Source: an uncultured bacterium (lineage in GTDB: Bacteria > Hinthialibacterota > Hinthialibacteria > OLB16). Taken from it: a DNA stretch of 64,000 nt. Of this stretch, positions 1 through 49,850 are shown in pieces. The notes under the pieces were generated by a model. The model made no database searches. It had not been told where the DNA came from and saw nothing but the letters and a program-made list of their open reading frames with translations. Each line of letters begins with the position of its first letter. Position 1 is the first letter of the stretch. Location: contig CAYZUX010000002.1 of NCBI GenBank assembly GCA_964481775.1, positions 20,221-84,220 of the forward strand, written 5' to 3'. Position numbers and translations under genes: made by a program.

Positions 1-1210
1 AGGCACAGAGGTGGCCGGGGATTTCCCCCAAAATATCAGGAAGCGGGCTTGCTCTCTTGAGATCGAAAGAATGGATGAAACGGGACAGATATCCGATCCA
101 GGAACGTATGTGAGCTCGCGATGTCTCAGTTCCGGTCTCGCAGTAGTTGATGATGGAAAAATCGATGTAGTCATAGTGCGCTCCCGACATGAGCGCGGTC
201 CAGGCCCGCTTGCGGTGGATAGTCCAGCCATCATAATCTTTGTACTGGCTGGCCACATTATCCTCGTCCATGTTCAGAGGTTTCATTTCATGCCAGCTGG
301 CCAGACAGAAATCCCGGAAAGGTTTCAGGCAGAGCTGTTTTGACATGAAGGGTCCCATGTGGTAACTGGTTCCGGCGTAGGTGATATTGGGCAAGGGGTG
401 GATGTTTACAATATCGAGAGGTGGCTCCGCAAATGAGCGTGTGGCGGGATGCTCCCAAGGTTCATAGGTGAATGCCAGATGACCGGCGATCAGGTGTTGG
501 TTGGGGAGCTGTGCCTCGGTCTCACGGATGATCCGCGCAATTTCAACCTGCCAGGCATCCACCTCCGAGGTTGTGGGCATTCCTTTTTCATTTGCAGGCC
601 ATCCACCCGGTTCGTTGCAGATTTCATAGAAGATATTGTCGTAACGGTTGGTCTCTTCCACGATTTTCCGAACATGGCGAAACTGGTATTCATTGATTCC
701 CGGATGACGCAGAGTCGTATAATCATGCCACTCAATCACTGGAAGATCGTTGATATTATTCCCCGCATTGAGGGGGTTCAATGACCAGATATTCGGAGCG
801 TAAGTATTGCTCGTCAGTACCACCTCAACAACGATGCCAAGGTCCGATGCCAGTCCAAGGAATCCGTGGAGACGTTCAAAGAACTCCGGATTCCATTGAT
901 CCAGGTCATACTTGGGTTGTCCATCCAGGGCGGAATCCGGTCCTACGCGAAGAAAAGGAGCGATGTAATCCGGGGACTCCGGCTTACAGGTAGAGTAAGG
1001 ATTGCAGTAGCTTTGAAGCTCGCGGAAAAGAACGAAAAGCCTTGTCAGGGTATGTCCATATTCAGCGGCGTGACGTAGATATTTCCTGAAATCAAAGGGG
1101 CGATTCATCACGGCCCCATAATGCTCGGTCGCAGTCACGAGCACTCGTGGTTTTCCTCTCAGTTCAAAGTATTTGGGATTTTCCGGTAAGACGTGGAGTG
1201 CTGTGGACAT
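1..1210 (-). CDS. Glycoside hydrolase, GH5-like (clan GH-A TIM-barrel), 5' complete, 3' truncated by window edge
   Basis: Uninterrupted minus-strand frame from ATG at 1208-1210 to the window edge (MSTALHVLPENPKYFELRGKPRVLVTATEHYG...). It contains the FYEICNEPG motif; NEP is the typical GH5 acid/base motif. The track omits it because no stop lies in the window. Confidence 0.6.
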   Translation of the reverse strand, partial: MSTALHVLPENPKYFELRGKPRVLVTATEHYGAVMNRPFDFRKYLRHAAEYGHTLTRLFVLFRELQSYCNPYSTCKPESPDYIAPFLRVGPDSALDGQPKYDLDQWNPEFFERLHGFLGLASDLGIVVEVVLTSNTYAPNIWSLNPLNAGNNINDLPVIEWHDYTTLRHPGINEYQFRHVRKIVEETNRYDNIFYEICNEPGGWPANEKGMPTTSEVDAWQVEIARIIRETEAQLPNQHLIAGHLAFTYEPWEHPATRSFAEPPLDIVNIHPLPNITYAGTSYHMGPFMSKQLCLKPFRDFCLASWHEMKPLNMDEDNVASQYKDYDGWTIHRKRAWTALMSGAHYDYIDFSIINYCETGTETSRAHIRSWIGYLSRFIHSFDLKRASPLPDILGEIPGHLCA

Positions 1211-2734: not shown

Positions 2735-3853
2735 GTGACTGTCAGTCCAGTGTTGAGGGAGGTCAAGGTAATGAATAGTCAAGGTACCCGGGGAACCTGG
2801 GGAATTCGTTTCCTGATTCACTTCTTCACCGTCGTCCTTGGGATTCTCATTTTCTGGCTTCTCGGTTTCCTTATCCAGGATATCAAGTCAATCCAAGGCC
2901 CCCTCTACAACGACATTGAACGCAAGTATGTCGACCTGAGTCTGATCCAGAAACAAGAGGATCTTGTAAAGCAGATTACCAGCCTCGATCGGGAAATCGC
3001 CAATAAGCGCGAGGAACAGAACCTGGTGGGCAACAGCTCCGAGAACCTCCAACGCACCATCAACCAACTGCTGGAGCTGCAGAAGCTCAGCATCGAGAGA
3101 CAGGTGTCACTTCCTGAATCCGATCAGGCCGACCTGTCTTTGAGCCTCTCTCATTTCCTGGAGAGTCAAAAGAACTATCAAACGCTGAACCAGGAAATCT
3201 CTGGGCTGCTCCTGAAAAAGGAATCACTCGATGCAGAGAAAAGACAGCTGGATGAGGAAATTGAAAAGAAAAGAGAACCAGCCAGAGCGGAATTTGACCA
3301 ATTGTTGGAGAAACACAATTTCAAGCTGGCCTGCATTCAACTGGCTTTTCTGATACCACTGCTCGTTGTCGCAGGATATCTGCTGATCCGTTGGCGTGGG
3401 ATCATCTACTTCCCACTCATCCTCGCCTTCAGTGGAGCCACACTGGTGAAAACCGTCGCTGTGATCCACGATTATTTTCCATCACGCTATTTCAAGTATA
3501 TTGTTACGTTAGGTCTCCTGGTGGTCGTCGCTCAATTTCTCATTTATCTGATCAGAATGATTGCCTATCCCAAGATGGCATGGGTTGCCAAACAGTACCG
3601 TGAGGCATATGAAAGATTTCTCTGCCCGGTCTGCGAGTACCCGATCAGGACGGGACCACGGAAATTCCTTTATTGGACCCGTCGGACTGTCCATAGGGTA
3701 TTGCCTCAAGGAGATCCCTCCTCCACTGACACTCCCTACACATGCCCTTCCTGTGGTACTGTCCTTTACGAAGTCTGCGGCAACTGCGAAAAGATCAGGC
3801 ACTCCCTGCTTGCTCACTGTGAGCATTGTGGAACGAAGAAAGAGATTGGATGA
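2735..3853 (+). CDS. Uncharacterised membrane protein: TM1, ~150-aa coiled coil, three TM helices, C-terminal double zinc ribbon (4 CxxC)
   Basis: Hydrophobic segment FLIHFFTVVLGILIFWLLGFLI, a long heptad/charged region, three further TM helices, then CPVC...CPSC...CGNC...CEHC. Alternative start MNSQG at 2771. No family recognised. Confidence 0.5.
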   Translation: MTVSPVLREVKVMNSQGTRGTWGIRFLIHFFTVVLGILIFWLLGFLIQDIKSIQGPLYNDIERKYVDLSLIQKQEDLVKQITSLDREIANKREEQNLVGNSSENLQRTINQLLELQKLSIERQVSLPESDQADLSLSLSHFLESQKNYQTLNQEISGLLLKKESLDAEKRQLDEEIEKKREPARAEFDQLLEKHNFKLACIQLAFLIPLLVVAGYLLIRWRGIIYFPLILAFSGATLVKTVAVIHDYFPSRYFKYIVTLGLLVVVAQFLIYLIRMIAYPKMAWVAKQYREAYERFLCPVCEYPIRTGPRKFLYWTRRTVHRVLPQGDPSSTDTPYTCPSCGTVLYEVCGNCEKIRHSLLAHCEHCGTKKEIG

Positions 3854-3890
3854 GATCAAAATCTCTGTTCTCCTTATCCCATAAAAACCG

Positions 3891-7996: not shown

Positions 7997-10099
7997 ATGT
8001 CTGAAAAAGAGTCGGAAACGGAAATTCTGCTCAGGCAGGCAATCCGGCACCATCAGAAAGGACAGGTCGATGCCGCCGAAGCTCTTTACCAACGTATCCT
8101 GAATAGCAATCCTCAACACCCTGATGCGCTGCATCTCCTGGGAATCATCCACCATGGCAAGGGGGATTATCAAAAGTCTCTCGAACTCATTGGCCAGGCA
8201 GTCATACTCAGACCTCACCTCGCCAGTTTCCAGAACAGTTTGGGAAATACGCTGCTCAGCCTGAAGAATTATGAAGAAGCTCGTAAATGTTATGAACAGG
8301 CACTCTTGATTCAACCAGATTATCCTGATGCACTCAGTAACCTGGCCCACCTGGAGTATCTCTGTCATCATGATCCTGCAGCTGAAGTTCTTTACAGGAA
8401 AGTCATAGAAATTCAACCCGGGAAGGCAGAAGCCTTCTTTCAGCTTGGCCGAGTTCTTTTCCGTCTTGGAAAATTGAGTCAGGCTGCGGAGGCCTTTGGC
8501 AGTTCCATCGCCCTGCGCCCCAATCACTCAGACTCCTATCTGCAGTTGGCGATGGTGCTACATGCGCTTGGGATGAACAGGGAAATTGTCATCATCCTGC
8601 GCCGGCTGATGGAATTTGACCGGAATAATCCAAAAGCCTGGACTTATCTGACGAGTGCTTATGAGACATTGACACAGTATGTGGATGCACTCAATTGCAT
8701 CCAGGAAGCGGAGGGTCTCTTTCCCAATGAACCCATCGTGATTCGTGAGCTCGGGAACGTATATTACGCACTGGGGGATCTTGAGAGGGCCAGGGAGTCA
8801 GTCCTCAAAGCCTTGGAGATCAATCCCAATCTCCCGGAGACCTATTCACAGCTGCTCTTTATTCAGACCCATTCCCCCGATGTATCCCCCGAGGAACAAT
8901 TCCGTGAACATCGTGCCTGGGCGGATCGTTTTGAGGCGCCGTATCTCGGATTAACCCCTGTGTTCCCCAATTCCCCTGAACCCGAAAGAAAACTCCGTAT
9001 CGGGTACGTTTCCCCTGACTTCAAAAAACATTCTGTGGCCTATTTTATCGAACCTGTTCTCATGTCGCATGATACCAGTCAATATGAAACATATTGTTAC
9101 ATGAGTTCCGCCTTCCGAGATAAAACCACCGAACGGATTCAATCAGTGGCAAGCCATTGGAGATCGATTGCGGGAGTTCCCGATGAAGGAGTCCTGGAGA
9201 TCCTCCGGGAGGATCAGCCTGACATTCTTGTAGATTTGTCCGGACATACCTCTCAAAACCGGCTTCCCCTTTTTGCCAGGAGAGCAGCCCCGATCCAGGT
9301 TGCCTGGATCGGTTATCCGAACACCACTGGCATGACCCACATGGACTACCGCCTGGTGGATAAATGGACCGACCCGGAGGGTATTGCAGATGATTTTCAT
9401 AGCGAAAAACTAATCCGCTTACCGCATGGTTTCTCGGTGTACCTCCCCCCATCTGACAGTCCCGCTCCGGTGGAAGAACTACCGGCGGATGAAAGAGGTT
9501 GGATCCTGTTCGCCTCCTTCAACAACCTTCCCAAAATCAACGATCGCGTGGTCGAAACATGGTCGGCCATTTTGAATCGTGTCCCCGGCTCGCGCCTGCT
9601 GATTAAGTGTAAGCAGATGGGGGATGAAGCCACCCGGAAAGTGGTCGCCAGCCGTTTCGCCAAATGGGGCATTTCCGAGGGGCGTATCTTGAACATGTCA
9701 TATGTTGCGGAAACCGCCGGTCATCTTGAAGCCTATAACCAGGTGGACATCGGCCTGGACACCTTTCCTTTCAATGGCGCCACGACCACCCATGAGGCCG
9801 TGTGGATGGGAGTTCCCGTAATTACTCTCGCTGGGGAGCGCCATGCCGGGAGAGTTGGGGTGAGTATCCTCAACCGCCTTGGTATGCCGGAGCTGATCGC
9901 TGATACCCGGGAAGAATATATCCAGATTGCCGTGGATCTGGCTCATGACCGGGACAGGCTGCGAAAACTTCGGACCGGAATGCGCCAGCGGGTTCTTTCC
10001 TCAAGCCTGGTGGACAAGGTCCTGATTACCCGATCGGTCGAGGAAGCGTACCGGAAGATGTGGCGGGAATGGTGCACTTTGGAGAGGCAGTTGGCGTAG
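7997..10099 (+). CDS. TPR-repeat protein with C-terminal GT41 (O-GlcNAc-transferase/SPINDLY-like) glycosyltransferase domain
   Basis: N-terminal tandem TPR motifs (AEALYQRILNSNPQHPDALHLLGIIHHGKGDYQKS...). The C-terminal half carries GT41-like RIGYVSPDFKKHSVAYF, then VAWIGYPNTTG and FNGATTTHEAVWMGVPV. Confidence 0.8.
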   Translation: MSEKESETEILLRQAIRHHQKGQVDAAEALYQRILNSNPQHPDALHLLGIIHHGKGDYQKSLELIGQAVILRPHLASFQNSLGNTLLSLKNYEEARKCYEQALLIQPDYPDALSNLAHLEYLCHHDPAAEVLYRKVIEIQPGKAEAFFQLGRVLFRLGKLSQAAEAFGSSIALRPNHSDSYLQLAMVLHALGMNREIVIILRRLMEFDRNNPKAWTYLTSAYETLTQYVDALNCIQEAEGLFPNEPIVIRELGNVYYALGDLERARESVLKALEINPNLPETYSQLLFIQTHSPDVSPEEQFREHRAWADRFEAPYLGLTPVFPNSPEPERKLRIGYVSPDFKKHSVAYFIEPVLMSHDTSQYETYCYMSSAFRDKTTERIQSVASHWRSIAGVPDEGVLEILREDQPDILVDLSGHTSQNRLPLFARRAAPIQVAWIGYPNTTGMTHMDYRLVDKWTDPEGIADDFHSEKLIRLPHGFSVYLPPSDSPAPVEELPADERGWILFASFNNLPKINDRVVETWSAILNRVPGSRLLIKCKQMGDEATRKVVASRFAKWGISEGRILNMSYVAETAGHLEAYNQVDIGLDTFPFNGATTTHEAVWMGVPVITLAGERHAGRVGVSILNRLGMPELIADTREEYIQIAVDLAHDRDRLRKLRTGMRQRVLSSSLVDKVLITRSVEEAYRKMWREWCTLERQLA

Positions 10100-37217: not shown

Positions 37218-37293
37218 GGATTCCCGCTTTCGCGGGAATGACGAAGCGAGCAAGAACATTCGGAAATCGTCATTCCCGCGAAAGCGGGAATCC
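37218..37293. repeat. Perfect 27-bp inverted repeat (22-nt spacer); each arm is itself a sub-palindrome (cruciform-capable element)
   Basis: ggattcccgctttcgcgggaatgacga at 37218-37244 is the exact reverse complement of tcgtcattcccgcgaaagcgggaatcc at 37267-37293. Inner hairpin ttcccgc-tttc-gcgggaa. Intergenic between two minus-strand genes. Confidence 0.85.
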
Positions 37294-37346: not shown

Positions 37347-38174
37347 TCAGTTCTTGCCGCGATCCGACCCGGTGTCATCGCCCTCATTATCCGAGCGCTC
37401 CGGGAAGGTTCCCGTGTCAGTGTCTTCATCGTTCTCATCGCCATGCTCGCCTGGACCAAACTGTGAGCCACCGCCAGGTAGAACGCCTTGTGCACCACCA
37501 GCGCGTCCAGTCTGGGTGGTACCACCCATCGAGCCTTGGATAAAGGTTCCATTCGGTTCGATATCCAGTGTGTCACCATCATCCAGAAGCCGCCTGCTCT
37601 TCCTCGTCCTCGGGTCGAGGATCGCAATTTTTCCGCGGAAAACACGGAACTTCACTTTGGGATTGCCTTGGACAGCAGGAAGGACCCTGGTACTGAACTT
37701 GGTTCCACGGACCGCGGCGACAGCGGTTGGGGTCTGGACCTCGAAACGTTCCGAGTTGGGATCGATCTTGCGGACATTCGCTATCACATGTCCTTCCGCA
37801 ACACGAACTCCTATGGTTTCGCCTCCACTGGCAACATCTGTAAAAAGCTCATTGAGTTTCACTCGAGAGCGCTCATCGATCTCAACCGTGGTTTGAGAAG
37901 GAGCCTCGCTTCCCGCAGGACCGGTCTTTCCCTCGATCAACAATTTGACACGGGATTTCGGCCCAGTCAGCAGGATGTGTCCCTGCTCCAGCCGGGTTTT
38001 ATTCACCTGGACAATAAACCGTTCCGGAGAACCTTCCTTGTAGAACTGCGCCTTCCCCGCTGCCTCGATGACCAGAGCGGTGAGTTGGGGGGGATTGGCG
38101 GGTTGAGCCTGCACGGTCAAAGCAGAGATGCAGGCAAGGAAACTGACCCTGAGGAAGGTAGAGATTGTGCGCAT
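37347..38174 (-). CDS. Secreted FecR-domain-like protein with acidic C-terminal tail
   Basis: Signal peptide MRTISTFLRVSFLACISALTVQAQP. FecR-like TAVAAVRGTKFSTRV. D/E/G-rich C-terminus. Confidence 0.45.
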   Translation of the reverse strand: MRTISTFLRVSFLACISALTVQAQPANPPQLTALVIEAAGKAQFYKEGSPERFIVQVNKTRLEQGHILLTGPKSRVKLLIEGKTGPAGSEAPSQTTVEIDERSRVKLNELFTDVASGGETIGVRVAEGHVIANVRKIDPNSERFEVQTPTAVAAVRGTKFSTRVLPAVQGNPKVKFRVFRGKIAILDPRTRKSRRLLDDGDTLDIEPNGTFIQGSMGGTTQTGRAGGAQGVLPGGGSQFGPGEHGDENDEDTDTGTFPERSDNEGDDTGSDRGKN

Positions 38175-43975: not shown

Positions 43976-45271
43976 ATGAACTTCTGGAAGATAATCATAC
44001 TGACCGGGGTGGTCTTGAACATGCTTCTCACAGGTGTGGGATACGGGCAAGTCAGCTATTTTGTGGATTGCCGTATAGAAGGAGCGGTGGGAGATGGATT
44101 GACCGATGATACCGCGGCTATCCAGTCCGCGCTGAACAAGGCGGGTCTCCAACAAGGGGGGGTGGTTTTACTCCCCGCTGGTTACTACCGGATCGAGGGA
44201 AACCTGACCATTCCTTCCGGAGTCACACTCCAGGGGATCTGGGACAGCCCTCACCATGAGGACCAGACATGGGGGAGCTCTCTTTTCGCGATTTCCGGAG
44301 CGGGACAAGCCACCGGTACTCCCCTCATCAATCTCTCCCCCAGTAGCGCCGTACGGGGACTCAAGATCTTTTACCCCCAGCAGGATGTGAACAATATCAA
44401 ACCCTATCCCTATGCAATCCGTGGCAGTGGCATGGAGTGCACAGTGGACAATGTCACCCTGGTGAATGCCTACCAGGGCATTGATTTCACCCCGGCGCAT
44501 GAGCTTCATACCATTCGCTATGTGCGTGGGTGTGTCCTCAAACAAGGGATCATTGTGGACAACTGCACCGATATCGGACGGATTGAAAATGTCCACTTCA
44601 ATCCCCATTACTGGGCCCGTGCCAAATCCGCTCCCGGATACACCGGATTCCCCGGTAATGGCTGGGATACGCTGGTAAACTATGTCAACAACAATCTGGA
44701 TGTGTTCATTTTCGCCCGCAGTGACTGGGAGTATGTGTTCAATACCTTTGCCTGGGGATTCAAGACCTGTTACCGGTTCGTGGATCGCGGAAATGGCAGT
44801 TGCAATGGGAACTTCCTGGGTATTGGGGCCGATGGGGGCCAGTATTGCGTGTGGGTGGAAAAGACTCAGCCCCCTGGATTACTCATCACCAATGGGCAGT
44901 TCGTATCCTTTGCAGGAACTAATCCAACAGAAATCTTTACAACCCCAGGGTTTACAGGCGTCGTTCAACTTTCCAACTGCTCATTCTGGGGACCCACCAA
45001 ACGCTGTGTCTACCAGCAGGGGAATGGTCTGGTTTCTCTACACCAATGCAACTTCCGTGAGTGGAACAACTCAGTTCCCGCGGTGGAGGTGGTCAGCGGT
45101 GAGCTGACTGTCACCAACTGTAATTTCGCCCTTAATCAAAAGCATATCAAAGTCAACAGCGGAGCGGGTAAACCAATCCTGGCAAATAACCGTTACAAGG
45201 GAAGTGCCCAAATTGAGGGGGCTGTGGAAGGTTCCAGCAGCGCCGATAACGGCACTGAGCTTTACAAGTAA
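43976..45271 (+). CDS. Secreted right-handed beta-helix protein (pectate-lyase-3/GH28-55-like)
   Basis: Signal MNFWKIIILTGVVLNMLLTGVGYGQ. N-terminal VDCRIEGAVGDGLTDDTAAIQSAL typical of the Pectate_lyase_3 superfamily. AAGGAGGA RBS before the ATG at 43976. Confidence 0.65.
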   Translation: MNFWKIIILTGVVLNMLLTGVGYGQVSYFVDCRIEGAVGDGLTDDTAAIQSALNKAGLQQGGVVLLPAGYYRIEGNLTIPSGVTLQGIWDSPHHEDQTWGSSLFAISGAGQATGTPLINLSPSSAVRGLKIFYPQQDVNNIKPYPYAIRGSGMECTVDNVTLVNAYQGIDFTPAHELHTIRYVRGCVLKQGIIVDNCTDIGRIENVHFNPHYWARAKSAPGYTGFPGNGWDTLVNYVNNNLDVFIFARSDWEYVFNTFAWGFKTCYRFVDRGNGSCNGNFLGIGADGGQYCVWVEKTQPPGLLITNGQFVSFAGTNPTEIFTTPGFTGVVQLSNCSFWGPTKRCVYQQGNGLVSLHQCNFREWNNSVPAVEVVSGELTVTNCNFALNQKHIKVNSGAGKPILANNRYKGSAQIEGAVEGSSSADNGTELYK

Positions 45272-46122: not shown

Positions 46123-46141
46123 AACAACTTGGTGGACAGCT

Positions 46142-46235
46142 CCCCCCACCCCACCCTCCCCCGCAAGGGGGGAGGAGATGTGTGAACTGTTATCTTCTTT
46201 TGTTTTCCTCCCCCCTTGCAGGGTAGGGTGGGGGG
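46142..46235. repeat. GC-rich nested palindromic element A (REP-like) between mqnD and rph
   Basis: Outer arms ccccccaccccaccct / agggtagggtgggggg (1 mismatch). Inner hairpin ctccccc-gcaag-gggggag. Confidence 0.7.
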
Positions 46236-46260
46236 ATAGAAAAACTGAAATGGAGACTCC

Positions 46261-46989
46261 ATGACTGAGAGATTCGATGGACGCAAACCGGGGGAGATCC
46301 GCCCGGTCAAGATGACGGTGGGGTTCCTGGAAACCGCCGAGGGCTCCTGCTGGATCGAGTTCGGAAAAACCAAAGTGCTCTGCACCGCGAGTTTCCAGGA
46401 CACACTGCCCAGCTGGAAGACAGACAGTTCCGGCTGGGTGACCGCCGAATATGCAATGTTGCCAAAATCTTCGAAAACCCGCATCTCGCGCGAAATCAAT
46501 CGTCCCAAGGGGCGTACCGCCGAAATCCAGCGCCTGATCGGCCGTTCCATCCGTGCGGTGACGGACTTCGATGCGCTCGGAAACCGGATGGTGAACATCG
46601 ATTGTGATGTTATTCAGGCCGATGGCGGCACGCGCACAGCGGCGGTAACCGGCGCGATGGTGGCCTATTGGGAGGCCTGCCACCTGATGGCAACTGCGGG
46701 AGTCTTTGCCCGCTGGCCGATCCGGGAGCTGCTCGCGGCGGTCAGCGTTGGCAAAGTGAATGGTGAAACCCTTGTGGATCTTTGTTACGCCGAGGACAGC
46801 ACCGCTGAGGTAGACATGAATGTGGTTATGACCGAGTCGGGGGAATTTGTGGAGGTCCAAGGGACCGCCGAATCCAAGCCATTCTCAAAGGCTGATCTGG
46901 ATGAGATGCTCTCCCTTGCAGAAGTGGGGATTCGTGAACTGCTGGCTAAACAGGTGGAGGTGTTGAAGGACCTGAAAGCGCCTGTATAA
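46261..46989 (+). CDS. rph: Ribonuclease PH
   Basis: MTERFDGRKPGEIRPVKMTVGFLETAEGSCWIEFGKTKVLCTASF...TRISREINRPKGRTAEIQRLIGRSIRAV. Confidence 0.95.
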   Translation: MTERFDGRKPGEIRPVKMTVGFLETAEGSCWIEFGKTKVLCTASFQDTLPSWKTDSSGWVTAEYAMLPKSSKTRISREINRPKGRTAEIQRLIGRSIRAVTDFDALGNRMVNIDCDVIQADGGTRTAAVTGAMVAYWEACHLMATAGVFARWPIRELLAAVSVGKVNGETLVDLCYAEDSTAEVDMNVVMTESGEFVEVQGTAESKPFSKADLDEMLSLAEVGIRELLAKQVEVLKDLKAPV

Positions 46990-47012
46990 GGCCGAAAAAA
47001 AACCGGTCAGCT

Positions 47013-47144
47013 GGCCCTGGAGTTGGACTCCAGGGCCAGGGCCTTCTGTGGGAGTTGTACTCCCACAAACCCTAACCTGATCGTAGCTTTCAGCGGAGTT
47101 CAACTCCGCTAAAAGGATTCCGCCCACGAGTGCAACTCGTGGGC
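47013..47144 (+). promoter_or_regulatory. Cluster of four tandem stem-loops sharing GAGT-NNN-ACTC apices in the tyrS leader
   Basis: ggccctggagt-tgg-actccagggcc (47013-47037); gtgggagt-tgt-actcccac (47048-47066); agcggagt-tca-actccgct (47092-47110); gcccacgagt-gca-actcgtgggc (47122-47144). No U-tracts follow. Confidence 0.6.
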
Positions 47145-47169
47145 GAGCTTAATCGCATAAGAGAGACTC

Positions 47170-48441
47170 ATGTCAAACGTCATAGAAACCCTTCAAGAAC
47201 GCGGCTTCATCGAGCGGATCACTGATCCTGAGCTCAGTTCTCTTTCGGAAAAGAAATGTCTCACGGTTTATTGCGGTTTCGACCCGACAGCCGACAGTCT
47301 TCACGCCGGAAATCTGGTGGCAATCCTGGCCCTGTCGCATTTCCAGCGGGCCGGACACAAGCCGATCGCGCTGGTGGGAGGAGCAACAGGGCTGATTGGA
47401 GATCCAAGCGGGAAGAAAGATGAACGCAAGCTCCAGACTCGTGAAATGGTCGAGAGAAATGTCGAGGGAATCAAAAAGGTTTTGGCCAAGTTCCTCCGCT
47501 TCGAGGGAGAAAATGCCGCCATCATTGTCAACAACCATGACTGGATGGGGCCGATCACCTTCCTCGATTTCATTCGTGATATCGGCAAGCATGTCCGCAT
47601 CACCGAGATGCTGGCACGCGAGTCGGTGAAGGCGCGTATCGATTCCGGGGCAGGGATGTCCTTTACCGAGTTCTCCTACCAGCTGCTCCAGGCCTATGAC
47701 TTTTATTATCTCCACAGTCACTATGGTTGTGATTTGCAAATCGGCGGCAGCGACCAGTGGGGCAACATCACGGCGGGAACCGATCTGATTCGTCGCCTGG
47801 GAGGAGAACAGACCTACGGCCTGGTCTGTCCGCTCCTGACCACCTCCTCCGGTCAGAAGTTCGGTAAATCGGAACAGGGCGCGATCTGGCTCACTGCGGA
47901 CCGTACCAGCCCCTACCAGTTCTACCAGTACTGGATCCGTACCGAGGATGCCGATGTGGGGCGTTTCCTGCGGATGTTCACCTTCCTGCCCCTGGCGGAG
48001 ATCGAGCAGCTGGAACGCCTCACGCAAGAGAAACCGGAAGCCCGCGAGGCCCAGAAGAAACTGGCCTGGGAAATCACCTGCCTGGTGCATGGTGAGGAGG
48101 AGGCCAAGGCCGCGCTCAAAGCCAGCGAGGCGCTTTTTGGAGGTGAACTCGCGGGGCTTGCAGCGGGTACGATCCTCGATGTGTTCTCGGAAGTACCTTC
48201 GTTTGAACTGGACCGGAAACGTTTGAATGAGGGGCTCTCTCTTGTCGATGCACTTGTTGAAAGCAACCTGGCGGGATCGAAGGGTGAATCCCGCCGTCTC
48301 ATCCAGGGCGGCGGTGTTTACATCAACAACCGCAAGGCCGAGGGAGATGAGAAGATTACTCCAGACTATCTTCTGGATGGTGGACTATTGGTCTTACGAG
48401 TGGGGAAAAAGAAGTATTGCCTGGGTAGGGTGAATGAATGA
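47170..48441 (+). CDS. tyrS: Tyrosine--tRNA ligase
   Basis: HIGH-type motif (LHAGNLV), KMSKS-type KFGKS, C-terminal S4 domain. Confidence 0.95.
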   Translation: MSNVIETLQERGFIERITDPELSSLSEKKCLTVYCGFDPTADSLHAGNLVAILALSHFQRAGHKPIALVGGATGLIGDPSGKKDERKLQTREMVERNVEGIKKVLAKFLRFEGENAAIIVNNHDWMGPITFLDFIRDIGKHVRITEMLARESVKARIDSGAGMSFTEFSYQLLQAYDFYYLHSHYGCDLQIGGSDQWGNITAGTDLIRRLGGEQTYGLVCPLLTTSSGQKFGKSEQGAIWLTADRTSPYQFYQYWIRTEDADVGRFLRMFTFLPLAEIEQLERLTQEKPEAREAQKKLAWEITCLVHGEEEAKAALKASEALFGGELAGLAAGTILDVFSEVPSFELDRKRLNEGLSLVDALVESNLAGSKGESRRLIQGGGVYINNRKAEGDEKITPDYLLDGGLLVLRVGKKKYCLGRVNE

Positions 48442-49087
48442 GTCCACGCTTCTCATCACTGAGATGTACCCCTCGATTCAGGGAGAGAGCACCTGGGCGG
48501 GGTTGTCCTGTTTTTTCATCCGTCTGACCGGCTGCCCCCTGCGGTGCCGTTGGTGCGACACGACCTATGCCTTCCATGGTGGCAAGCGGATGCCCATCCC
48601 GGAGATCCTCGCGGCGGTTGATGCCTCCGGTATCAACCTGGTGGAGGTCACCGGGGGCGAACCCCTGGCGCAACATAATTGTCCCCTTCTCTGCCAGGCT
48701 TTGCTTGATGCAGGAAAGACCGTTCTCATCGAAACCGCTGGGTCTCACCCAATCGAGGTCCTTCCCGAAGGTGTCATCCGGATCATGGATCTCAAGTGCC
48801 CCGGGTCAGGCGAGGTGGAAAAGAACTTGTGGAGCAACCTCGATCACCTCAATGAACGTGATGAAGTCAAGTTTGTCATCTCATGCCGCGAGGATTTCGA
48901 GTGGGCCAGGGATGTAGTCAGAGAGCACCGTCTTGAGAGGCGGGTCCATGCTGTGCTCTTTTCGCCTGTTTTTGGAGAAATCGACATGGCGGAGCTGGTG
49001 GCATGGATCCTCGCGGACAAGTTGCCGGTGCGTTTCCAGTTGCAGATGCACAAGTTCATCTGGGAACCCACACGGAAAGGGGTGTAA
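48434..49087 (+). CDS. queE: 7-carboxy-7-deazaguanine synthase (radical SAM)
   Basis: [33 protein letters not shown]. Overlaps the tyrS stop by 8 nt. Confidence 0.9.
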
Positions 49088-49142
49088 CCTCACCCCTCTG
49101 TCCCCTTCTCCTCGCGGGAGAGGGGGACAGGGGGGTAAGGTT
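49086..49142. repeat. GC-rich nested palindromic element B between queE and queC
   Basis: aacctcacccctctgtcccc / ggggacaggggggtaaggtt flank the inner hairpin ttctcctc-gcg-ggagag. Confidence 0.7.
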
Positions 49143-49160
49143 ATTAATAAGGAGCCTTAT

Positions 49161-49850
49161 ATGAAAGCCGTTGTGCTTCTCTCCGGTGGTCTGGATTCCG
49201 CCACAGTCCTCGCGCTCGCTCGACAAGAGGGGCGTGAATGTTATGCCCTTTCGTTCCGGTATGGCCAACGGCATGTGTATGAACTCGAGGCCGCCGGGAA
49301 AGTCGCGCGCTCGCTTGGAGCCAAGGAGCATCTTGTCTTCGATATCCCTCTGAACCGTTGGGGCGGATCGGCGTTGACCTCGGAAATCGAGGTTCCCAAG
49401 GATCGTACGGGCGACGAGATGTCCCATGGCATCCCGATCACCTATGTCCCCGCGCGCAACACGGTTTTTCTCTCACTCGCATTGGCCTGGTCCGAGGTAT
49501 TGGAGGCGGGTGAAGTCTGGATCGGGGTGAATGCGCTGGATTATTCCGGATACCCCGATTGCCGTCCGGAATTCATCCAGGCATTCCAGGAGGTGGCACG
49601 TCTGGGAACCAGGACTGGGGTGGAGGGAACACTCCCCCTCCAGATCCGTGCACCACTCCAGTTTCTCACCAAGGCGGAGATCATCCGGACCGGCACAGAC
49701 CTTGGGGTGGATTACAGTCTCACCCGTTCCTGCTATGACCCACCCTCAGCGGATTTGCACTGCGGACACTGTGATTCCTGCCTGCTGCGCAAGAAAGGTT
49801 TCATCGAGGCGGGAGTTGAGGATCCAACCTCTTATGCCAGACAGAGATAA
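49161..49850 (+). CDS. queC: 7-cyano-7-deazaguanine synthase
   Basis: [18 protein letters not shown] (PP-loop) and C-terminal Zn site [29 protein letters not shown]. The track start at 48933 is discarded. Confidence 0.9.

Follow-up and report, generated by a model that had tools for sequence, protein, structure and literature searches.

A probable REPIN-type element between rph and tyrS of an uncultured bacterium and its RAYT-linked family of hairpins

The 64-kb stretch of DNA that we analyzed (hereafter the window) carries a compact block of four hairpins in the spacer between the genes for RNase PH (rph) and tyrosyl-tRNA synthetase (TyrRS; tyrS). We interpret this block (47007-47151) with good confidence as a single REPIN/BIME-type element—a mobile palindromic repeat inserted between the two genes—and not as a regulatory RNA specific to tyrS. 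The element takes the form of an inverted dimer and belongs to a REP family linked to REP-associated tyrosine transposases (RAYTs); this family is marked by a GYT tag, is hitherto undescribed, and falls outside the GTAG and CGTC classes as described in PMC3733652. The host belongs to an uncultured lineage: its relatives by TyrRS are labelled Omnitrophica or 'p_OLB16', and a JGI metagenome contig (L093) carries an identical sequence.

Anatomy and setting of the hairpin block

The four perfect hairpins, each closed by GAGT-N3-ACTC, that an earlier note on this DNA had described between rph and tyrS are all present (47011-47145), with stems of 8-13 bp and 3-nt loops. The loops that it gave (TGG, TGT, TCA, and GCA) stand, whereas its stem lengths of 11, 8, 8, and 10 bp give way to perfect stems of 13, 9, 8, and 11 bp. 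The first hairpin begins 22 nt past the rph stop codon, and the genes neighboring the block all lie on the + strand. The motif GAGT-N3-ACTC occurs six times in the window against an expectation of 0.79, a number that 0 of 100 shuffles reach, and four of these six matches fall inside 130 nt of the rph-tyrS spacer. The remaining two, at 37854 and, within an ORF, at 44220, show no extended hairpin when perfect stems of 8 bp or more are listed.

The loops are polar, reading TGN in the two forward hairpins (H1 and H2) and NCA in the two reverse ones (H3 and H4), such that upon reverse-complementing the latter all four apices become GAGT-TGN-ACTC, with N being G, T, A, and C. A position-by-position reading aligns H1 base for base with the reverse complement of H4 except at three stem pairs, which are changed on both sides. 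AGCT precedes both H1 and H4, each in its own orientation (the foot tags in the window are AGCT-GG and AGCT-CG), and 47009-47149 as a whole is a large but imperfect inverted repeat, the arms of which are 55 nt long and 71% complementary. From apex to apex, the spacing in the block is 32/44/32 nt. Since the tips become uniform once oriented, with H1 and H2 running forward and H3 and H4 backward, the block resolves into two inverted copies of a unit of ~65 nt (Table 1). In each unit a GCT tag comes first, then a hairpin of 11 bp and, 32 nt on, a smaller one. In reading the sequence we saw no separate direct target-site duplication at the block ends, where AGCT belongs to the inverted repeat as the unit tag; the spacers of relatives are too diverged for an empty-site comparison. 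The sole GTAG in the block (47077-47080) lies 11 nt from H3, on the wrong side for the orientation of that hairpin.

Table 1. Features of the hairpin block, its neighbors, and related loci (positions refer to the window unless a contig is named)
Feature	Positions	Strand	Remarks
rph (RNase PH)	46261-46989	+	upstream neighbor; Pfam RNase_PH, RNase_PH_C
tyrS (TyrRS)	47170-48441	+	downstream neighbor; Pfam tRNA-synt_1b, 298 bits
REP unit A, forward	47007-47071	+	GCT tag 47010-47012, H1, 9-nt spacer, H2
H1, large hairpin	47011-47039	+	13 bp, loop TGG, apex GGAGT/ACTCC
H1, canonical 11-bp stem	47013-47023 paired with 47027-47037	+	extends to 13 bp
H2, small hairpin	47047-47067	+	9 bp, loop TGT; apex starts 32 nt past the H1 apex
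Central spacer between inverted units	47068-47091		24 nt, H2 to H3; one base differs in L095
REP unit B, reverse	47087-47151	-	tag GCT on - (AGC at 47146-47148 on +), then H4, H3
H3, small hairpin	47092-47110	-	8 bp, loop TCA on +, TGA on -
H4, large hairpin	47121-47145	-	11 bp, loop GCA on +, TGC on -; apex CGAGT/ACTCG
L001 rph-tyrS spacer	700-780		GTAG-tagged pair GTAGCGAATTCATTCGC
L002 rph-tyrS spacer	2870-2985		three copies of TGTTGTTCACGCTTCAGCGTG
L096 rph-tyrS spacer	9925-9975		hairpin related to that of L002
L123 RAYT ORF beside family hairpins			67% identical to L161; NF047646 98 bits
L184 RAYT ORF beside family hairpins			41% identical to L161; NF047646 101.5 bits
L224 RAYT ORF beside family hairpins			91% identical to L161; 5.37-Mb contig
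L227/L228 RAYT ORF beside family hairpins			64% identical to L161
Contigs with GTAG direct doublets			L117, L121, L126, L128, L135, L144, L183, L187, L197, L200, L206, L207, L218, L222

Downstream of tyrS come a radical-SAM QueE-like gene and then queC; the identities that had been assigned to these genes, and to rph and tyrS, are borne out. The QueE-like gene overlaps the end of tyrS by four codons, and queC is next (47170-49850), while in one relative (L096, 12709-13833) tgt adjoins the tyrS, QueE-like, and queC genes. This gene linkage ties TyrRS to queuosine synthesis, and tRNA-Tyr is a queuosine-modified tRNA. Two small ORFs overlap the hairpins, one of 40 aa called as a gene in L095 and one of 80 aa in reverse orientation in the window; both are without support and were set aside as by-products of the palindromes.

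The genome of the window seems to host several palindromic repeat families. The spacer between mqnA and rph (46123-46260) contains another REPIN-like inverted pair, unrelated to the first, whose hairpins have C/G runs, one being CCTCCCCC-GCAAG-GGGGGAGG at 46155-46175, with its inverted partner at ~46207-46235. The corresponding spacer of L095 is 21 nt long and without this pair; similar hairpins are found at 4934-4992 of L002 and 11946-11969 of L095. A third inverted doublet, with its hairpins 52 nt apart, occupies a spacer between two - strand ORFs (37220-37291) and consists of ATTCCCGC-TTTC-GCGGGAAT and ATTCCCGC-GAAA-GCGGGAAT, with extended flanking complementarity (GGAATGACGA...TCGTCATTCC).

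A RAYT-linked family of two-hairpin units

We scanned metagenomes for two oriented apices 5-35 nt apart and obtained at least 120 loci, most of which are unrelated direct repeats. Among the matches listed, a subset combines an nGTT or nGCT tag, a variable 11-bp stem, a loop reading TGN, and, 30-34 nt downstream, a small hairpin that shares this apex; the foot tag in this family is mostly nGTT-NG. The layout of the window—large forward, small forward, small reverse, large reverse—is frequent among these units and recurs in L161, L224, and L171.

In L161 the hairpin clusters lie on either side of a 181-aa ORF, which scores 91.6 bits with the NCBIfam model NF047646 'REP-associated tyrosine transposase' (cut-off 80) and 23.4 bits with Pfam Y1_Tnp (cut-off 23). 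Hairpins likewise adjoin, or flank on both sides, the ORFs of L123, L184, L224, and L227/L228, which together with that of L161 span 170-193 aa. NF047646 gives 91.6-101.5 bits for the ORFs of L161, L123, and L184, and the RAYT profile matches the family-associated ORFs with E values from 1e-53 to 1e-79. At these loci, flanking of a RAYT is a property of the family; for the 64 kb of the window, tblastn and a profile HMM derived from RAYT homologues (E<=10) both failed to detect a RAYT gene. A weak RAYT-like tblastn match in L025 was not confirmed by the profile. A phmmer search with this RAYT clade against PDB chains gave no match. In the 20-kb locus of L224, all 18 hairpins are intergenic, confined to three intergenic spaces and clustered next to the RAYT, compared to one copy of the element in the window and one in the 21 kb of L095.

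To place the window copy we used a covariance model (R1) built from 12 units of L161, L224, L171, and L123, with no sequence from the lineage of the window, and searched it over the whole window with filters off. R1 matches once per strand, with the two units facing each other: 47007-47071(+) scores 55.4 bits over the full model length (E=2.2e-12) and 47087-47151(-) scores 46.4 bits (E=3.9e-10), while the next, unrelated match has E=0.16. These scores compare with 49-61 bits for the independent members L209, L186, and L171. In contrast, loci that merely hold both cores mostly reach 25-38 bits, L209 (52.4) and L186 (51.4) being strong exceptions. L095 yields the same two matches, and one weaker copy, in a different spacer, is found in L097, which is an Omnitrophica MAG from this broad lineage.

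Across 31 aligned units, 98.8% of the cells pair, and double changes are seen in 9 of 17 pairs, a level attained by 0 of 500 shuffles. No variation is seen in the four apical pairs or in the second pair counted from the foot, and 29 of the 31 units have G-C as their fifth apical pair. Because the stems pair and covary throughout these units, the combination of different outer stems with conserved tips is a property of the family rather than of the tyrS leader.

Several other hairpin arrays came to light alongside this family. In L225/L226, hairpins with a GTT tag and the apex GGATC-TCY-GATCC stand on either side (2829-3001 and 3549-3869) of a RAYT that shares 53% identity with the L161 enzyme; this suggests that the apex co-varies with the enzyme lineage. 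A distant RAYT-like ORF in L212 (12291-12961; profile E=1.8e-9) directly adjoins a doublet of TAGAGT-TGG-ACTCTA hairpins. The 1.8-kb contig L119 carries (390-1155) ~11 hairpins TGTCGAGT-TGA-ACTCGACA with the same apex core, a spacing of 44/88 nt, and a few reversed copies. Finally, GTAG-CGCAGAGTTGCACTCTGC-TGTAT-CGCAGAGTTGCACTCTGCG constitutes a separate, abundant family of direct doublets in metagenome contigs, with the canonical GTAG tag and a GAGT-TGC-ACTC apex; no RAYT was found near these doublets within the contig stretches examined.

The rph-tyrS spacer in relatives and alternative readings

The window and L095 (TyrRS 91% identical), which are each other's closest pair by third-position identity, share the same four hairpins. 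Three further relatives (L001, L002, and L096; TyrRS ~90% identical) have unrelated rph-tyrS spacers, each with a different REP-like inverted repeat; the elements of L002 and L096 are GTTCACGCTTYAGYGTG hairpins. In distant relatives, rph and tyrS are separated by 71 nt (L097) and 23 nt (L101). The block is absent upstream of tyrS in L001, L002, L096, L097, L099, and L101, the leaders of which are unrelated or very short. Thus, the short spacers of the distant relatives and the differing REP-like elements of the three ~90% relatives point to insertion into a repeat-prone spacer. The simplest history is a single insertion in the common ancestor of the window organism and L095, into a spacer that attracts palindromes. 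The varied repeats of L001, L002, and L096 look like 'overwriting', wherein REPINs in a conserved spacer are overwritten as RAYTs change (bioRxiv 10.1101/2024.10.14.618302).

The 141-nt element is identical at 136 positions between the window and L095, as against an identity of 0.65-0.74 (about 67%) at the third codon positions of rph, mqnA, queE, and tyrS (binomial p <= 1e-12). One stem pair of H1 is changed from T-A to C-G in L095, in a compensated manner, and one U-A to U.G change preserves pairing only in the + strand RNA; the spacers between the hairpins are conserved as well. A neutrally decaying selfish copy should match the silent-site divergence, which this element does not; therefore, some constraint or homogenization acts on it. 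Three explanations are inseparable with the one informative genome pair that bears on the near-identity. First, host use is possible, e.g., as an mRNA 3' barrier or attenuator in an rph-tyrS co-transcript. Second, other family copies could have repeatedly overwritten or converted the element, a process put forward for REPINs that sit in conserved spacers (bioRxiv 10.1101/2024.10.14.618302). Third, the constraint could be linked to recognition by the RAYT.

Host use would extend the main explanation to an exapted REPIN—a REP by origin that the host now maintains as a structured stretch of the rph-tyrS transcript. It may form an exonuclease barrier that stabilizes the rph mRNA, or else a site of attenuation or processing by which expression of tyrS-queE-queC is uncoupled from rph. 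We consider this extension tentative and on balance doubtful. The excess identity over third positions, the conserved inter-hairpin spacers, the compensated stem change, and the U.G change that pairs only as + strand RNA argue for it, as do the uniform + orientation of the flanking genes and the scan of the rph-tyrS spacer, which found no sigma-70-like promoter. Against it, the informative comparison is a single genome pair, and three equally close relatives are without the element and have other repeats instead, so that tyrS expression does not need it; moreover, overwriting, gene conversion by family copies, or RAYT-imposed constraint could also conserve the element. The earlier note had named, as the outcome that would refute its own reading, hairpins conserved in no relative and a core at random frequency; L095 keeps the block, and a local effect on rph/tyrS expression is accordingly possible.

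That the hairpins are stacked terminators, rho-independent or lacking a U-tract, which end the rph transcript is very unlikely. This reading draws on the GC-rich perfect stems that start so soon after the rph stop codon and on the terminator scan, whose single consensus match lies on the - strand at H4, where no convergent gene would need termination. A T-run is missing after every + strand hairpin, which bears out the earlier view that these are not simple intrinsic terminators. The 23 nt between rph and tyrS in relatives imply co-transcription, and the inverted symmetric order of the four hairpins would be left unexplained.

The proposal of a novel cis-regulatory RNA for the tyrS-queE-queC unit, be it a new riboswitch, a sensor of tRNA-Tyr or TyrRS, or a substitute for a T-box, is not supported. 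The block does lie immediately upstream of tyrS, the 201-nt region around the hairpins has a strong predicted fold (z = -7.9), and L095 conserves it. However, the Rfam scan that had been recommended returned no family in the hairpin region at the gathering threshold over the whole window—confirming that no T-box is present—and at E<=10 on 46900-47260 gave sub-threshold noise with nothing relevant. The block has no alternative terminator/antiterminator pairing and no U-tract, and its two halves are oppositely oriented, such that the loops would differ in the RNA (UGG, UGU, UCA, and GCA), which counts against a leader. The unit also occurs at unrelated loci and around RAYT genes. The suggested comparison of tyrS leaders came out divided, with the block conserved in L095, inclusive of the compensated change, and absent from the other relatives. 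These comparisons of sequence largely refute a tyrS-specific leader, which we regard as highly improbable.

Least probable of all, and by our estimate extremely so, is a set of four operators (GGAGTnnnACTCC) recognized as duplex DNA by a dimeric transcription factor that regulates tyrS or rph: the 13-bp palindromic core is present four times at regular spacing and phage contigs hold operator-like direct repeats of similar 13-mers, but an operator has no need of 6-9 extra flanking bp that are site-specific yet perfectly self-complementary, the family-wide covariation indicates hairpin formation, the family is dispersed and RAYT-linked rather than bound to one regulon, and H4 deviates from the 13-bp core (CGAGT...ACTCG).

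Certain resemblances were pursued and discarded. Mimicry of the tRNA-Tyr anticodon arm fails in that opened apices give loops such as GUUGUAC, placing UGU and not GUA at positions 34-36; likeness of GGAGTTCAACTCC to a tRNA T-arm fails as the register gives no 5-bp stem with a 7-nt loop. GANTC, as in CcrM methylation sites, is present in some apices only. A scan of viral contigs for operator-like repeats returned 12 loci, mostly identical 13-mer direct repeats without variable extended stems, and was uninformative.

Known REP systems and a candidate mechanism

The REPIN reading draws its closest parallel from the REP/BIME repeats of E. coli with their enzyme TnpA-REP (YafM) (PMC3479197). In both systems the hairpins are short, extragenic, and paired in inverted fashion; a single HUH/Y1 transposase-like gene has family copies on its flanks; a short conserved tag stands at the 5' foot of the hairpin; and the presumed substrate is folded single-stranded DNA. 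They differ in that the present family has a GYT tag in place of GTAG (the window has GCT, other copies mostly GTT), its stems are perfect rather than bulged, and a unit has two hairpins. Moreover, the invariant part here is the apex GGAGT-TGN-ACTCC plus one foot pair, with a variable mid-stem, and the RAYTs are without a phmmer match to PDB chains. The tag weighs against the REPIN reading, as neither a GTAG nor a CGTC foot, by which a REP is classically recognized, is found. So do the single copy of the element in the 64 kb of the window and in the 21 kb of L095, the lack of a RAYT gene in those 64 kb, and the near-identity with L095, which would not be expected of a copy that is purely selfish and decays neutrally. 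Other marks of a REP are in place: short extragenic stem-loops, inverted pairing, RAYT flanking at the level of the family, and a specific model match.

The REPINs of Pseudomonas fluorescens (Bertels & Rainey; PMC3116915, PMC3337134) are mobile units of two inverted REPs with a short spacer, as is the element of the window. Their RAYT is typically single-copy and REPIN-flanked (PMC3116915, PMC3337134); similarly, the L224 copies cluster in intergenic spaces next to the RAYT, and a given spacer can hold different REPIN types in related genomes. Unlike these REPINs, each arm here has two separate local hairpins, and as a consequence the predicted fold favors the four local hairpins over a single long REPIN hairpin; the host, too, is different, being of an uncultured Omnitrophota/'OLB16'-like lineage.

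With the GTAG and CGTC REP super-families (Di Nocera et al. 2013, PMC3733652) the family shares stems of 5-13 bp, loops of 2-3 nt, a predominance of head-to-head dimers, stem variants inside a family, and members in PVC bacteria, but it belongs to neither tag class. CGTC families have stems of 8-9 bp that start with A-T pairs, loops of 4-5 nt, CCA tails, and no dedicated transposase (PMC3733652), whereas here the stems are 11 bp long with G-C as the second pair, the loops measure 3 nt, and a RAYT accompanies the family. A more remote likeness is to the subterminal hairpins of IS200/IS605 elements (IS608 and ISDra2), in which an HUH/Y1 enzyme recognizes a hairpin together with a short guide in single-stranded DNA; the present element differs in being much shorter and in having no transposase gene and no distinct left and right ends.

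These parallels suggest a mechanism. The unit of mobility would comprise a 5' GYT tag, an 11-bp hairpin, and a 6-9 bp hairpin 30-34 nt on, both with the apex GGAGT-TGN-ACTCC. By analogy with E. coli TnpA-REP, which requires both the 5' GTAG tag and the hairpin to bind and cleave single-stranded DNA (PMC3479197), and with IS200/IS605, the RAYT (HUH/Y1) would bind the hairpin folded in single-stranded DNA. It would plausibly read the invariant apex and the foot, i.e., the tag and the invariant second G-C pair, and then cut and rejoin nearby, thereby copying, moving, or rearranging units; head-to-head dimers are common among REPs (PMC3733652). Recognition of the palindromic tip by a protein thus fits the reiterated binding site that the earlier note had considered, with the implied protein being a RAYT and not a dimeric regulator of tyrS. 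As the mid-stem would need only to pair, the outer stems can vary and still stay perfectly complementary. Selection for folding may be one of two ways in which the stems are kept perfect; templated correction within quasi-palindromes could also keep them so. The ancestor shared by the window organism and L095 would have acquired the element in its rph-tyrS spacer, and since the flanking genes are on one strand the element is probably transcribed in the rph-tyrS message. There, its hairpins could serve as 3'-exonuclease barriers or weak attenuators, as a secondary effect.

A stronger, compound claim would be that a transposase of the REP/RAYT lineage, widespread in uncultured PVC-like bacteria, reads the tip GGAGT-TGN-ACTCC together with the GYT foot tag instead of a GTAG foot, and that the host, by using this particular copy as an RNA structure of the rph-tyrS-queE-queC transcript, has kept it nearly unaltered at a single chromosomal site across species-level divergence. 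We deem the two together unlikely.

The REPIN reading removes a false lead, in that the hairpins would not be a new riboswitch or synthetase leader. The near-identity of an orthologous copy despite heavy silent-site divergence adds a data point to the question of whether REPINs are tolerated or maintained. A working covariance model now defines a REP family that neither published class (GTAG or CGTC) covers and that goes with a RAYT clade of uncultured bacteria, and the family's apex-invariant, stem-variable units of two hairpins lead to clear predictions on how the enzyme recognizes its substrate.
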